A stretch of DNA of 64,000 nucleotides from Escherichia coli (GTDB taxonomy: Bacteria > Pseudomonadota > Gammaproteobacteria > Enterobacterales > Enterobacteriaceae). The DNA lies in assembly GCF_030013595.1 (NCBI RefSeq), contig NZ_CP122768.1; one strand, 5' to 3'. Below the pieces are notes generated by a model. The model searched no databases. It saw nothing but the letters and a program-made list of their open reading frames with translations, and had not been told where the DNA came from. Positions 39,672 to 44,362 of the stretch are shown here, one piece after another; position 1 is the stretch's first letter, and each line of letters begins with the position of its first letter. Position numbers and translations under genes: made by a program.

Positions 39672-40337
39672 TCAAACAAAACCTGCCGCTTTCCTGCGTT
39701 CATATTCCTGTTTCAGCAACTCAATTGGAGTTGGCCCCGACGGGCGTTCTGGTGCTGCCAGTTGCCTACGGACGGGTGGAACACTCAGTCCGTTACCAAC
39801 ATGCTTTGCCCATTTCGCTAGTTGCCGTTCTGCAAGCCGTTTTAACTCCCCTTCGGTCATCTGGCGCTCAATCCCCTTTGAACGCAGCTCGAGACAAATG
39901 TGATACAGCACAGGCTGAGACCACGGGTATTTATCGCTTCCGTCGTATCGCCAGGACTCGTTGCGCCAGCGTCGGTACTCCTCCATCACGTTATCCACCG
40001 TCAGACCAAATGGATTTGCCCCGCTCTCCGAAATCAGCGCCACAAACTCAGCCAGGTCCGGAGGCCATGTTTCACCCGCCCGGCAGCGGTCCATGCACTG
40101 GCGGCAGACCTGCCGGATTTGCTGCTCAGTCATCGCGCCAATCTGTGCAATCCAGAGCTTCGAAGGTGCGGCCCCGTTCTTCTGGGTCCAGCGGTTCGAA
40201 TAAACCTCCCCCATGAGTTCCCACAGCTTCCAGGCCGTTTCCGTCGCTGATAAATCCGTTTTCACGTTCCCACTGCTCACGTGCTGCCCGAATTTCCTGA
40301 ACTGCCCGTGATGCGGTGCCACCTGGTGCTGCTGCAT
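39672..40337 (-). CDS. replication protein P-like (helicase loader)
   Basis: Central and C-terminal region resembles lambda P (FVA…, YPWS…, RINRGE-like region); start uncertain because of overlap with the O ORF. Confidence 0.65.
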   Translation of the reverse strand: MQQHQVAPHHGQFRKFGQHVSSGNVKTDLSATETAWKLWELMGEVYSNRWTQKNGAAPSKLWIAQIGAMTEQQIRQVCRQCMDRCRAGETWPPDLAEFVALISESGANPFGLTVDNVMEEYRRWRNESWRYDGSDKYPWSQPVLYHICLELRSKGIERQMTEGELKRLAERQLAKWAKHVGNGLSVPPVRRQLAAPERPSGPTPIELLKQEYERRKAAGFV

Positions 40338-41166
40338 GGTTTACCCCCTTGCTGACTGGTTTAACCTGTGCCCTGACGTGATTTACGTGACGGGCGAATT
40401 TCTGCTCCCACTGAACCTGCGTGAACACTTTGCCCTCATCGCTCCAGTAATCCCGGAATGCGGCAAGTTCAGCAGGTGTAAATTCCGGCTCCGGCAAAGC
40501 CATCCCCCACAACGCAGCCCGTCGTCGAAAATCCCGTGACGGATGCCAGCTATCGGTCATCGGAAATTTTCCGATGGGTTCGCTCAGGCCATCCAGGAAT
40601 ACGGGTGGCACTGCCTGTAACGACAAAACTTCCTGCTCACTGGTCGGAGCACTCTCGCGTGCGTTATGTGTGGGGTTTAGATCTTTGGGTTCCTTTGGGT
40701 TCCGTGATCCGTTTTTGGGTGTCTTTGATGGAAAATTTGGGTGTCTTTGGTTATTTTCCATGCAGCTAAGAGTTCCGTTTTTGGGTCTGTTTTGTGCTGA
40801 AACATAACCATTTTCGGTACTGTTTTTATTAACAGTACCAATTTTACCCACCTTTAAAGACTCCCGTTTTTGGGTGTATTCAGGCTCGGCAACACTTTCT
40901 TCTACACCGATAAGTCGGTACACCACAATTTGCTTTGTTCTGCCTTTTCTCTCACCGGTATCAACAATTAACCCAATCTCCATCAGGTGTCGTAAGCTGT
41001 CCTGCACAGTCTTTTTGTTCAGTTCCGTTACTTCTGCCAGTGCAGATACAGACGGGTATGCACACAAATCGGCACCGCACATATCAGCAAGCCAGGTCAA
41101 TACTGACTTACTGGATGAACTGCCGGTTTTCACCTTTTTAGCCCATCGTAGTGCATCGATACTCAT
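40126..41166 (-). CDS. replication initiator O-like (N-terminal HTH origin-binding domain)
   Basis: Track ORF 40126-41241; start placed at MSIDALRWAKK; iteron array lies inside the gene. Confidence 0.65.
   Translation of the reverse strand: MSIDALRWAKKVKTGSSSSKSVLTWLADMCGADLCAYPSVSALAEVTELNKKTVQDSLRHLMEIGLIVDTGERKGRTKQIVVYRLIGVEESVAEPEYTQKRESLKVGKIGTVNKNSTENGYVSAQNRPKNGTLSCMENNQRHPNFPSKTPKNGSRNPKEPKDLNPTHNARESAPTSEQEVLSLQAVPPVFLDGLSEPIGKFPMTDSWHPSRDFRRRAALWGMALPEPEFTPAELAAFRDYWSDEGKVFTQVQWEQKFARHVNHVRAQVKPVSKGVNHAAAPGGTASRAVQEIRAAREQWERENGFISDGNGLEAVGTHGGGLFEPLDPEERGRTFEALDCTDWRDD
40670..40880. repeat. candidate replication origin: iterons (tttgggt-type repeats) plus AT-rich inverted repeat inside the O-like gene
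   Basis: Repeated …ctttgggttcc/gtttttgggtgtc… motifs and palindrome ggtactgtttttattaacagtacc; lambda ori lies inside O in the same manner. Confidence 0.55.
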
Positions 41167-41689
41167 ACGAACCCCTGGCAGACATTTGTTTATCTGCAAA
41201 GTAATATTGGTATTGCTGACGATACGCGTGCTTGAAAGCAATAGCTTTTTCTATAAGCTCGTCAGTCTCACGTTCCACAACAGCTGGATCCGCAAAAAGC
41301 AGCCCGGACTCCACCACATCGCCATATTCTTTGTTTAACCCGGCGATCATGTACGTAATGCTTTTTCCGTCAGTAATTTCACAATACAACCTGAAATCGC
41401 TGATCCGGATAGCCTCCATAATTGCCGGAATCAGCGCCGTGAATTTTTCCCGCTTATCCCTGGTGTCGATAGCTTTCCAGCGTTCGAATATCTTCACCCG
41501 GTTAACGCCCAGCGCCCGTTGATCAACCGCGCCATCATCAAACGTGACGCGTTGAACATCGATGTTCGGGCGTTCTTTCAGAGCCCAGAAGGCTTCCGTG
41601 ATTAATATCGTCGCCTGCTCCTGTGTCATTCCTGGTCGGCACACCCAGGCATCCAGAGCCTCACAAACCTGTTCAGGGGTGATTTTCAT
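41138..41689 (-). CDS. hypothetical early protein (YdaT/cII-position)
   Basis: 183-aa ORF between the cro-like and O-like genes. Confidence 0.4.
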   Translation of the reverse strand: MKITPEQVCEALDAWVCRPGMTQEQATILITEAFWALKERPNIDVQRVTFDDGAVDQRALGVNRVKIFERWKAIDTRDKREKFTALIPAIMEAIRISDFRLYCEITDGKSITYMIAGLNKEYGDVVESGLLFADPAVVERETDELIEKAIAFKHAYRQQYQYYFADKQMSARGSYEYRCTTMG

Positions 41690-41900
41690 TGTTCAACCGC
41701 CCCGCCCGCTTTGCCTTACGATATTCGTCATAAACTTTGGGGTCGTACTGAAGTTCCCCGCCGGATGCCTCTTGCAGGCGCATCGCGCGACCTTCAGGAA
41801 CCAGTTCCCCCCATGCAGCAATGCTTGCCAGCCTAACTCCTGCGGCATTGGCAAGCTTTGTTTTGCTGCCAAAAAACGCTATAGCATCAATTTTCAACAT
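41673..41900 (-). CDS. Cro/YdaS-like HTH regulator
   Basis: 75-aa ORF divergent from the repressor gene. Confidence 0.6.
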   Translation of the reverse strand: MLKIDAIAFFGSKTKLANAAGVRLASIAAWGELVPEGRAMRLQEASGGELQYDPKVYDEYRKAKRAGRLNNENHP

Positions 41901-41976
41901 ATCGAGCTCCTTAGATTTTCCTAAGGAAACTAGATCGTAGAGAAACCTAAGTCAAGAAAAATTAGAATTCCCTAAT
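41901..41976. promoter_or_regulatory. divergent promoter/operator region with cttagg/cctaag palindromes
   Basis: ccttagATTTTCctaagg palindrome and a further aacctaag half-site between the divergent repressor and cro-like genes. Confidence 0.55.
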
Positions 41977-42384
41977 ATGAAAAACGAAACCTTCGGTGCT
42001 CGCCTCTTACATAGGCGTAAAAAATTAAAACTGTCTCAGGCCGCATTAGGTAAGCTGGTCAAAGTGGCTCACGTAACAATTTCTCAATGGGAAAGAGATG
42101 AAACACAGCCGGCGGGGAAAAGATTATTCGCACTGAGCCAAGCGCTTCAGTGCTCACCGACTTGGCTTCTTTTTGGGGATGAAGATAAACAACCAGGCGA
42201 ACCGATCCCGGATAATCAGCCAGCCATTCTGACAGAAGATCAAAAAGAGTTACTTCAACTGTTCGACGCACTGCCTGAGTCAGAGCAAAAGGCCCTGTTG
42301 TCAGAGATGCGTGCTCGAGTTGAAAATTTCAACAAACTTTTTGAAGAACTACTCAAAGCTCGCAAAAGAAGCGCAAACAAATAA
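41977..42384 (+). CDS. prophage repressor (XRE-family HTH, cI/DicA-like)
   Basis: 135-aa ORF with N-terminal HTH (LSQAALGKLVKVAHVTISQWER); flanked by related operator motifs. Confidence 0.75.
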   Translation: MKNETFGARLLHRRKKLKLSQAALGKLVKVAHVTISQWERDETQPAGKRLFALSQALQCSPTWLLFGDEDKQPGEPIPDNQPAILTEDQKELLQLFDALPESEQKALLSEMRARVENFNKLFEELLKARKRSANK

Positions 42385-42429
42385 TCCCCTTTTTTCTCCA
42401 CACCCTGTAATAAAAAGCACAAACTTTCA

Positions 42430-42520
42430 AACACTTGTGTTTTTTACATCAAAAAACTTAGGTTTTTCTACATAAAAATCTTGACCACCAGCCTTAGGTT
42501 ATTCTAAATTTCATTCATCA
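42430..42520 (+). promoter_or_regulatory. candidate repressor-controlled early-left promoter (TTGACC -35) with two cttaggtt operator half-sites
   Basis: aacttaggttttt and gccttaggttatt flank ttgacc; same half-site as in 41901-41976. Confidence 0.5.
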
Positions 42521-42586
42521 AGACACCGCACGGTGTTCTCAGCAAACAGTTCCGCCACCCCGGCGTTAAGGGGAAATGAGGTCAAC

Positions 42587-42739
42587 ATGGATACTATCGA
42601 TCTTGGCAACAACGAATCTCTGGTATACGGCGTGTTTCCCAACCAGGACGGCACATTCACCGCGATGACGTATACCAAAAGCAAAACGTTTAAAACCGAA
42701 ACTGGCGCTCGTCGCTGGTTAGCCAGAAACACTGACTGA
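42587..42739 (+). CDS. YdfA-like small protein (DUF1391-like)
   Basis: Internal Met of track ORF 42533-42739 gives MDTIDLGNNESLVYGVFPNQDGTF… (~50 aa), first gene of the early-left operon. Confidence 0.5.
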   Translation: MDTIDLGNNESLVYGVFPNQDGTFTAMTYTKSKTFKTETGARRWLARNTD

Positions 42740-43389
42740 TGAGGCTGACGATGGAATTTAAAGATTTACCAATATCAATACAGGAAATGGCCGCTGATGT
42801 GATTCGCTCGCAACTGGCGCGGAACCCAATGATATTAGTAGATAAAGTGTTCATCAGAAATTTATCAAATCATGTCCGCAATTCTTTTACCGGACTGTAT
42901 TCATATTCGTTCACAAACAATCATTGTGTAGAAAATAAAGCAAAGCCCATTGCAGAAACGATAACGCAAAACATCAATACGAAACAAACCGAAGAAGAAA
43001 TTGACCAGTTTACCCGTGATGCTGGCTTAAAATGCAGGAAAGAAAAATCGCCATATGCGGGAAATATGTTTGTTTATGACAACCTTATCCGAATTCGTGG
43101 CGAAATTCCGACTGAATACCTGGCAAGAATTCACCAGGCATTACTTAAAAATCTGGAAACGGAAGTATTTGATGGCAATACCAACGGCTCCTTCGTGGTG
43201 TCAACTCTCGCAAAAGAGTGGGATACAGATAATCGCTGGAATGTTGCTACATGGTTATTCAGCAACAAAGCTGCTGCCCTGGAAGCTGCGGCCTGTATTT
43301 GCGACCTGCTAAGGACAGACCGCAAATACAACCTGGATGTGTATAGCTATATTTATGCTGAACACTATCCGCTATGGATTAACTGGTAA
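42739..43389 (+). CDS. hypothetical protein (moron, no recognisable family)
   Basis: 216-aa ORF; start may be 42751 (MEFKDL). Confidence 0.45.
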   Translation: MRLTMEFKDLPISIQEMAADVIRSQLARNPMILVDKVFIRNLSNHVRNSFTGLYSYSFTNNHCVENKAKPIAETITQNINTKQTEEEIDQFTRDAGLKCRKEKSPYAGNMFVYDNLIRIRGEIPTEYLARIHQALLKNLETEVFDGNTNGSFVVSTLAKEWDTDNRWNVATWLFSNKAAALEAAACICDLLRTDRKYNLDVYSYIYAEHYPLWINW

Positions 43390-43671
43390 TTACAAAGCTG
43401 TACCAGCAGGGCCACGGCGACCAGCGCCACGATTGTAATCAATGATGCCATTATAAAGCGCATTATTTAATTTATCGTCGAATGCCGATTCTGTGAGCCC
43501 TAGATCTGAATGAGTTTTTAATAACCCTGATTGCCTGAGTTGATTAACCAGGCATTCAATCTGTTTTTCAATAAGCGGATGTATTGGCTTGTTTGGCATT
43601 TTATCCTCCATTGAAGTTACTGGTTGAGAATGGAGACCACACGTGACAGCGTGTTGTCGTGCACCGGACAC
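43390..43671 (-). CDS. hypothetical small protein, convergent with the upstream gene
   Basis: Track ORF 93 aa; probable start at internal MEDKMPNK (~73 aa). Confidence 0.4.
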   Translation of the reverse strand: MSGARQHAVTCGLHSQPVTSMEDKMPNKPIHPLIEKQIECLVNQLRQSGLLKTHSDLGLTESAFDDKLNNALYNGIIDYNRGAGRRGPAGTAL

Positions 43672-43929: not shown

Positions 43930-43988
43930 TTGATTACCTTTTGGTGGGTATCCGTTTTTTGTTTTCCCTTGTGATACCCGCCCTTTTT
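43930..43988 (+). ncRNA. DicF-like small RNA (terminator-ended)
   Basis: Hairpin ggtgggtatc…gatacccgcc plus T5 at 43943-43988, about 185 bp upstream of the DicB homologue; Qin-like gene order. Confidence 0.45.
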
Positions 43989-44173
43989 AAAGTGAATTTT
44001 GTGATGCGGTGAATGCGGCTCAGCGCACGCGGAACAGTTAAAAAAGTGATCGGTACTCTGTATTTGTTTTATGGAGTTGGTTTCCCTGTATTCCGGCGTT
44101 AATTGTTAACTGGTTAACGTCACCTGGAGGCACCAGGCACCGCATCACAAAATTCATTGTTGAGGACGCGATA

Positions 44174-44362
44174 ATGGAAACGTTATTACCAAACGTCAAT
44201 ACGTCTGAAGGTTGTTTTGAAATTGGTGTCAGAATCAGTAACCCTGTATTTACTGAAGATGCCATTAATAAGAGAAAACACGAACGGGAGCTATTAAATC
44301 AAATATGCATTGTTTCAATGCTGGCCCGTTTACGCCTGATGCAAAAAGGACGCTGCCAATGA
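44174..44362 (+). CDS. dicB: cell division inhibitor DicB homologue
   Basis: 62-aa ORF METLLPNVNTSEGCFEIGV.ISNPVFTEDAINKRK…ICIVSMLARLRLM, matching my recollection of Qin DicB. Confidence 0.75.
   Translation: METLLPNVNTSEGCFEIGVRISNPVFTEDAINKRKHERELLNQICIVSMLARLRLMQKGRCQ

Follow-up and report, generated by a model that had tools for sequence, protein, structure and literature searches.

The region around positions 41,900 to 42,520 of a stretch of Escherichia coli DNA of 64 kb (the whole stretch is called the window in the following) carries a repressor gene with the same short sequence, CTTAGG or its complement CCTAAG, on both of its sides. This arrangement raises the question whether one repressor controls two promoter regions, namely that of the divergent cro-like gene and that of a rightward early operon containing the cell division inhibitor gene dicB, following the logic of OR and OL of phage lambda as a sequence-only reading of the region had proposed. 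Based on the comparisons described below, the region very probably represents the immunity switch of a lambdoid prophage of the Qin/Rac type, in which a single DicA protein would control both sides.

The assignment of the two divergent genes as a repressor gene and a cro-like gene was confirmed by NCBIfam scores above the respective cut-offs. The dicC gene (41673..41900, minus strand) encodes a Cro-like repressor of 75 aa (NF007282, 167.9 bits, cut-off 130), and dicA (41977..42384, plus strand) encodes a short CI-like repressor of 135 aa that matched NF007257 over its full length (residues 1-135; 237.3 bits, cut-off 101). DicA has an N-terminal HTH domain and no peptidase domain. Over its 135 aa it matched only HTH families, the Pfam domains of near-identical DicA cluster representatives were likewise restricted to HTH domains, and the C-terminal half of the protein is specific to the DicA family. 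Family and structure matches of the 135-aa protein included neither an S24 peptidase domain with Ala-Gly cleavage site nor a C-terminal oligomerization and RecA-cleavable domain. Downstream of dicA, on the plus strand, lie a ydfA-like first gene of 50 aa (42587..42739), which is annotated as DUF1391 family in a 98%-identical E. coli locus, and further on dicB, encoding a cell division inhibitor of 62 aa (44174..44362; NF049927, 128.8 bits, cut-off 100). In the 98%-identical E. coli locus, the gene beyond dicC carries the annotation "toxin YdaT family protein". With at least 80% query coverage, the window allele was found in 748 of 5,426 complete E. coli genomes (about 14%), and close copies are present in prophage Sp9 of strain O157:H7 Sakai and in PPompW prophages of Shiga-toxin-producing strains.

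The YdaT-family gene (41138-41689, minus strand) overlaps the end of dicC and is followed by replication genes (DnaT-like or O-like, and P-like; 39672-41241, minus strand), so that the window prophage, unlike Qin of K-12, retains replication genes beside the module. The best phage matches were Escherichia phages vB_EcoS-640R1 and 813R8, which covered 61% of positions 32000-56000 at 93% identity. In view of this coverage, the window prophage may be less decayed than Qin.

Repeat finding combined with a weight matrix yielded five predicted operators of 18 bp, none of them assigned to a strand, with three sites on the OR side and two on the OL side. Their symmetrized consensus is (A/C)CTTAG-N6-CTAAG(G/T), and in the symmetrized counts T, T, A, and G occupied half positions 3-6 in 8, 10, 10, and 10 of the 10 half-sites, respectively. 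O1 (41909-41926, CCTTAGATTTTCCTAAGG) is a perfect 6-6-6 palindrome and the strongest of the three OR-side sites; it spans the predicted dicC start region and its Shine-Dalgarno sequence and is the counterpart, at the same position, of Oc in K-12. O2 (41935-41952, TCGTAGAGAAACCTAAGT) has a single good half-site, sits within the spacer of the predicted dicC promoter, where it overlaps the -35 region, and is kept in 29 distinct sequences of the window class. O3 (41960-41977, AATTAGAATTCCCTAATA) overlaps the dicA start codon. These three sites occupy the 76-bp spacer between dicC and dicA and are collinear with Oc, Om, and Oa of K-12. On the other side of dicA, OLa (42456-42473, ACTTAGGTTTTTCTACAT) is located 7 bp upstream of the -35 region of the early promoter and OLb (42492-42509, CCTTAGGTTATTCTAAAT) between its -35 and -10 regions, overlapping the latter. 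O2, O3, and OLa have only one good half each. A third OL operator was sought with the weight matrix, and between positions 41600 and 42700 no site besides the five scored above 7 bits. The sequences cited in the sequence-only reading were all found in place, i.e., the palindrome CCTTAGATTTTCCTAAGG at 41909-41926, the half-sites AACCTAAG at 41944-41951 and CTTAGGTT at 42457-42464 and 42493-42500, and TTGACC at 42481-42486. Its half-sites, however, are the good halves of full 18-bp pseudo-palindromes, the extra one in the dicC-dicA spacer being part of O2, and O3 had been missed.

By homology to K-12, the dicC promoter presumably extends from 41955 to 41927 on the minus strand, with a -35 region (TTGACT, 41955-41950) and a -10 region (TAGTTT, 41932-41927) separated by a 17-nt spacer. 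The order on the minus strand is O3, 4 nt, TTGACT, the 17 nt holding O2, the -10 region, and finally O1 with AAGGAG, the ribosome-binding site of dicC. K-12 Qin shows an identical spacer geometry, in which an O3-like site is followed by 4 nt, TTGACT, 17 nt, the -10 region TATCTT, and Oc. In front of the dicA ATG no Shine-Dalgarno sequence is present. A candidate dicA -10 region, TAGAAT (41963-41968), is located inside O3 and ends 8 nt before the start codon, and the heptamer TTAGAAT was invariant in 29 distinct sequences of the window class. From the position of TAGAAT and the missing Shine-Dalgarno sequence we infer a near-leaderless dicA mRNA originating from a promoter within O3. The cI transcript formed from PRM of lambda is leaderless, and the position of the dicA start codon beside a promoter element suggests a similar situation here.

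Behind dicA, a predicted terminator (42411..42446, plus strand) is composed of an A-tract, a 12-bp stem, and a U-run (-9.6 kcal/mol, z = -3.0). Inspection by eye showed that a hairpin and a T-run are kept at this position in diverged alleles despite dissimilar sequence. The terminator is followed by OLa, 7 nt, TTGACC, 5 nt, and OLb, the right half of which forms the sequence TAAATT. These elements make up a predicted dicBp-like promoter, the analog of PL (42481..42510, plus strand), in which the -35 region TTGACC (42481-42486) and the -10 region TAAATT (42505-42510) are 18 nt apart. It was one of only three promoter-like matches in the 2.7 kb scanned. The dicBp promoter of K-12 Qin has TTGACC, 17 nt rather than 18 nt, and TAATCT, and is likewise flanked by two operators: the sequence 3' of dicA reads ATGTTAGCTATAGCATACA, TTGACC, and ATGTTAGTCATGGCTAATC, the K-12 Oc being TTGTTAGTCATAACTAACAA. 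The claim that two downstream sites bracket a TTGACC element thus holds for OLa and OLb, and the layout in K-12 is alike.

The leader of the early transcript (42515..42586, plus strand), located 5' of the ydfA-like gene, is nearly identical across DicA specificity classes, K-12 Qin included, and recognizable across genera. It could serve as a nutL-like signal or as a processing signal. Two small overlapping hairpins, CGCC-ACCCC-GGCG and CCCC-GGCGTTAA-GGGG, with compensatory changes can be drawn in the leader; the fold of the single sequence is not unusually stable (z = -0.07).

The early operon had been proposed to run from the ydfA-like gene through DicB and DicF. The ydfA-like gene and dicB are indeed present, whereas no Rfam match to DicF was obtained in the window, either at the gathering threshold or at E ≤ 1, and a minus-strand ORF lies inside the proposed unit. 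The gene order (ydaT-like, dicC, dicA, ydfA ... dicF position, dicB) and the DicA length of 135 aa are the same as in K-12 Qin; the two loci carry different cargo between ydfA and the dicF position and diverge in the DicF core. The segment 43936-43990 (plus strand) occupies exactly the place of dicF in K-12, with flanks almost identical to K-12, and can form a hairpin of 10-12 bp with a U-run behind it (-16.6 kcal/mol, z = -4.1). Among 5,426 complete E. coli genomes, 91 carry this diverged variant, in no case with an annotation. It may represent a form of DicF that has another targeting sequence.

Three further observations concern this interval. In place of ydfB and ydfC of K-12, the window contains a 216-aa ORF (42739-43389, plus strand) and a 72-aa ORF (43393-43608, minus strand), both without an NCBIfam match. 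Relative to the presumed early operon, the 72-aa ORF would have an antisense orientation. A sub-threshold match to Rfam STnc100 was obtained 5' of dicB, behind the dicF position (43995-44151, plus strand; 34.5 bits versus a gathering threshold of 47, E = 1.3e-5).

It is conceivable that the early promoter is repressed as proposed, that its transcript stops short of dicB, and that dicB is expressed from internal promoters which are not under control of the immunity repressor. The minus-strand ORF at 43393-43608 and the 1.6 kb of different cargo between ydfA and dicB would be compatible with such a situation, as would the strong hairpin with U-run at 43943-43990, and for K-12 further promoters upstream of dicF and dicB have been reported (PMC11430063). 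On the other hand, the stretch of 570 bp preceding dicB shares about 89% identity with K-12, where RT-PCR and processing data showed a single polycistronic mRNA starting at dicBp, without a further promoter being detected (Ragunathan et al., 2023; PMC10448788). Moreover, the hairpin at the same position in K-12 is the 3' end of DicF and is read through for dicB expression. We consider an early transcript ending before dicB unlikely, and control of dicB from the early promoter plausible by analogy to K-12.

For K-12, DicA was shown to bind Oc in vivo, with a single base change abolishing binding, to repress dicC, and to activate dicA, and the promoter and the start site of dicC were mapped (Yun et al., 2012; PMC3441716). 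Deletion of dicA caused a 22-fold derepression of dicBp, whereas deletion of dicC had no effect; repression of dicBp was relieved by the antirepressor Rem, and bistability was DicC-dependent (Ragunathan et al., 2023; PMC10448788). Autoactivation and bistability of the DicA/DicC system have been reported (PMC3441716, PMC10448788). In the publications consulted, the evidence for an action of DicA at dicBp comes from lacZ-fusion genetics, and operator binding there is given as a sequence-based prediction. A passage of PMC10448788, citing Bejar 1988, describes operator sequences like lambda OR and OL in both intergenic regions of K-12. DicA is unmentioned in the main text of a ChIP compendium (PMC12059191).

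Another explanation for the five sites is that only O1 is a true DicA operator and that the other four are mainly sites for DicC or for a host factor such as YjdC, in which case DicA would repress the early promoter indirectly or only together with a partner. Om and Oa of K-12, when tested alone, showed no DicA binding in vivo (PMC3441716), and O2 and O3 may therefore require cooperativity or be mainly DicC sites. In ChIP-seq experiments with K-12 DicC, the motif TT(A/C/T)G...C(G/A/T)AA was obtained, i.e., the same TTNG...CNAA palindrome, with the top peak at the dicC-dicA promoter and further sites at the dicB-side promoters (PMC11430063), and YjdC binds in the dic operator region (PMC9283627). 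The assumption that DicA itself reads the sites on both sides is addressed by a comparison of repressor alleles with their operators.

The DicA proteins of the window and K-12 are 62% identical and the DicC proteins 84%. In helix 2, DicA of the window has SQAAL and that of K-12 TQRSL, and the half-sites are CTTAG-N6-CTAAG in the window versus GTTAG-N6-CTAAC in K-12 Qin. Further loci were collected from E. coli genomes, phage records, and viral contigs, together with ten loci of other Enterobacterales picked for differing HTH sequences, and 18 alleles of the 18-bp operator type from several Enterobacterales genera were tabulated (10 SQA/SQS, 6 TQR, and 2 TQK). Across these 18 alleles, changes in the half-site next to cro were accompanied by changes in the half-sites of the downstream promoter, and the outer base of the half-site tracked the residue in DicA helix 2, with G accompanying Arg, C accompanying Ala or Ser, and A accompanying Lys. 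The O1 of the 10 SQA/SQS alleles, which include the Pantoea and Erwinia loci, showed C...G, and their OL sites had C or T exclusively. The six TQR alleles are those of K-12, E166, phage BUCT708, and loci assigned by their sources to Serratia, Klebsiella, and Dickeya. Their O1 had G in the five cases matching the search pattern; the O1 of the locus named Dickeya, CTGTTAGATTTAACTGACAA, was read by eye. Likewise read by eye, both OL sites flanking the promoter had G in 6/6 TQR alleles; the pattern search had missed OLa of K-12 and, in other parts of the 200 nt covered, had given three stray matches with a base other than G. In the two TQK...LSDVSISQ alleles, ATTAG...CTAAT was present on both sides. 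Classes with a different operator architecture also repeated their own half-sites on both sides, namely TTGAG-N4-CTCAA in the Z1322 class (SQNG...VSGSSISL) and TAAC-N4-GTTA in the phiES15 class (...FKWE). The helix-2 residue and the outer base are linked here by correlation and not by a demonstrated contact.

In four loci (L003, L174, L178, and L180), the recognition helix ends with (F/Y)KWE instead of SQWE, and the half-sites on both sides of the repressor gene appear reversed, with a shorter spacer (e.g., CTAAC-N4-GTTAG). Among the ten loci picked for differing HTH sequences (L172-L181), whose records name Citrobacter, Serratia, Klebsiella, Dickeya, Pantoea, Erwinia, and metagenomes, a P22_Cro-like gene was divergent to dicA in all ten and a YdaT-like gene was located beyond it in nine. 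Short early genes lie downstream, and those called in five of the ten loci included at least one of KilR, lambda Kil, DUF1482, and GamL; in the window and in K-12, DicB stands at that downstream position. A second scan of viral contigs, with the Z1322 allele as seed, returned only copies of 96-100% identity and no new specificity class.

Several ways of reading the half-sites were discarded. Automatic definition by a search for perfect palindromes failed for several alleles, and template and pattern tables were used instead. A cross-test of C-type and G-type alleles requiring 8 of 10 matches to a template was uninformative, because the templates differ at only 2 of 10 positions, and the discriminating base was used in its place. 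With the exception of K-12, the other TTAG-type alleles also have C in the good half of O2, because this C belongs to the dicC -35 region TTGACT. As it is part of TTGACT in every class, the C-type half of O2 in G-type alleles was ruled out as an indication of a shared DicC specificity.

A second line of evidence comes from conservation at the downstream promoter. In 17 diverged loci of the window class, the columns of OLa and OLb had a mean conservation of 0.90 compared to 0.56-0.64 in the flanks, and the mean pairwise identity of these operator columns was 0.84 compared to 0.52 in the surrounding columns. The covariation together with the conserved operator columns is what would be expected for recognition of both sets of sites by one protein. 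With respect to the assumption of O1 as the only DicA operator, the left half-sites of the OL operators share the discriminating base of O1, which tracks the helix-2 residue of DicA in the 18 alleles. In addition, the HTH sequence of E166 DicC is only one residue off that of the window (V for I), yet O1 and the OL sites of E166 are G-type, following its DicA. The derepression of K-12 dicBp in the absence of dicA, and not of dicC (PMC10448788), points in the same direction. A restriction of DicA to O1 is in our view quite improbable, and the preferred reading of one DicA acting on both sides was retained.

The hexamer CTTAGG/CCTAAG has four copies in the 64-kb window, and 4/4 are located within 580 bp of non-coding DNA around the repressor gene. 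For the whole window, 15.8 copies were expected from dinucleotide shuffles, 6.3 from a second-order Markov model, and 2-3 from third-order and maximal-order models. Because the higher-order models predict 2-6 copies, the total is uninformative, and the plain hexamer count was dropped as evidence for enrichment; it is the clustering and the leave-one-out ranks that carry the weight. In a leave-one-out analysis, a palindromic weight matrix was built from four of the five sites and the fifth was ranked among 63,983 positions. All five sites reached ranks of 3-6 (OLb rank 3, O2 rank 5), so that, with the four training sites set aside, each came first or second. That the repeats are due to chance or are a by-product of AT-rich promoter DNA without operator function is effectively refuted by the comparative sequence data: although the whole-window count of four lies within the higher-order Markov expectation, the right half of OLb doubles as a -10 region, and the good half of O2 overlaps a -35 region, the sites cluster in 580 bp with leave-one-out ranks of 3-6 of 63,983, they co-vary with the repressor in 18 alleles, half-sites of their own kind recur on both sides in three classes of different architecture as well, and conservation is seen in the operator columns but not in the intervening DNA.

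A related structure is that of the C2 repressor of Salmonella phage P22, whose N-terminal domain, with solved structures of its DNA complexes, is homologous to DicA residues 2-69 (E = 1e-21; PDB 1ADR, 2R1J). Val33 of C2 is retained in DicA (alignment vahVtisqwer / vsnVaisqwer). The P22 operators also comprise 18 bp (ATTTAAGATATCTTAAAT), and Val33 packs on the methyl groups of TTAA; TTA at half positions 3-5 is a register shared with the window operators (PMC5175364). The half-sites differ, with TTAAG in P22 and TTAG in the window. The resemblance to P22 extends to the Cro partners in related loci, which match Pfam P22_Cro. C2 is a protein of 216 aa with a peptidase and RecA-cleavage domain, in contrast to the 135-aa DicA lacking it, and the window differs from immC of P22 in that just two OL sites were found.

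The features shared with lambda are a divergent repressor/cro pair with a tripartite operator, the position of the repressor gene, with OR on one side and on the other a second set of operators controlling a leftward-type early operon, and a division inhibitor in this operon, i.e., Kil in lambda and DicB in the window. In contrast, DicA has no sequence homology with lambda CI, the operators have 18 bp instead of 17 bp, lambda has three OL operators and the window two, the distance from OR to OL is, unlike in lambda, only about 0.55 kb, and no counterpart of N follows the early promoter of the window. Whereas the lambda repressor is inactivated by RecA cleavage, an antirepressor or repressor instability is the probable route for DicA, as judged from K-12 (PMC10448788). 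The lambda-like logic originally proposed is thus upheld by the covariation of half-sites on both sides and by the K-12 ortholog, except that OL comprises two sites rather than three.

In the switch that we propose, a DicA dimer would recognize the 18-bp sequence (A/C)CTTAG-N6-CTAAG(G/T) via its P22-C2-like HTH domain. O1 would be occupied over the dicC start region, O2 over the -35 region and spacer of dicC, and O3 over the start codon and the likely -10 region of dicA, while OLa and OLb would bracket the -35 region and cover the -10 region of the rightward early promoter, the dicBp-like PL analog. Occupancy by DicA would shut off dicC and the early unit from ydfA to dicB and sustain the synthesis of DicA itself. 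DicC, as the analog of Cro, would shut off dicA through the same sites. For the window we infer the binding of DicA, the order of operator occupancy, and read-through to dicB. Since this design has been described for K-12 Qin from 1988 onwards (Bejar et al., 1988; PMC3441716, PMC10448788), the interpretation of the sequence-only reading corresponds to the established model there. The lambda-like reading is supported, and the window represents an uncharacterized allele of C-type specificity.

The correlation described above might reflect a specificity code of DicA, in which the residue following [S/T]Q sets the outer base of the half-site (Arg-G, Ala/Ser-C, and Lys-A) and the window prophage is heteroimmune to K-12 Qin; we put this forward tentatively, with rather less than even confidence. 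If correct, the C-type class would obtain its first defined member with the window allele, and co-resident Qin-like prophages could each control their own division inhibitor independently. DicB blocks cell division and phage receptors. The module would control DicB and a DicF-like RNA, and the importance of the finding is modest, as no new regulatory principle is involved. Knowledge of the exact operators and promoters would allow the prediction of cross-repression among cryptic prophages residing in the same cell, and the G, C, and A types would form a natural series for specificity change in P22-C2-like HTH domains.
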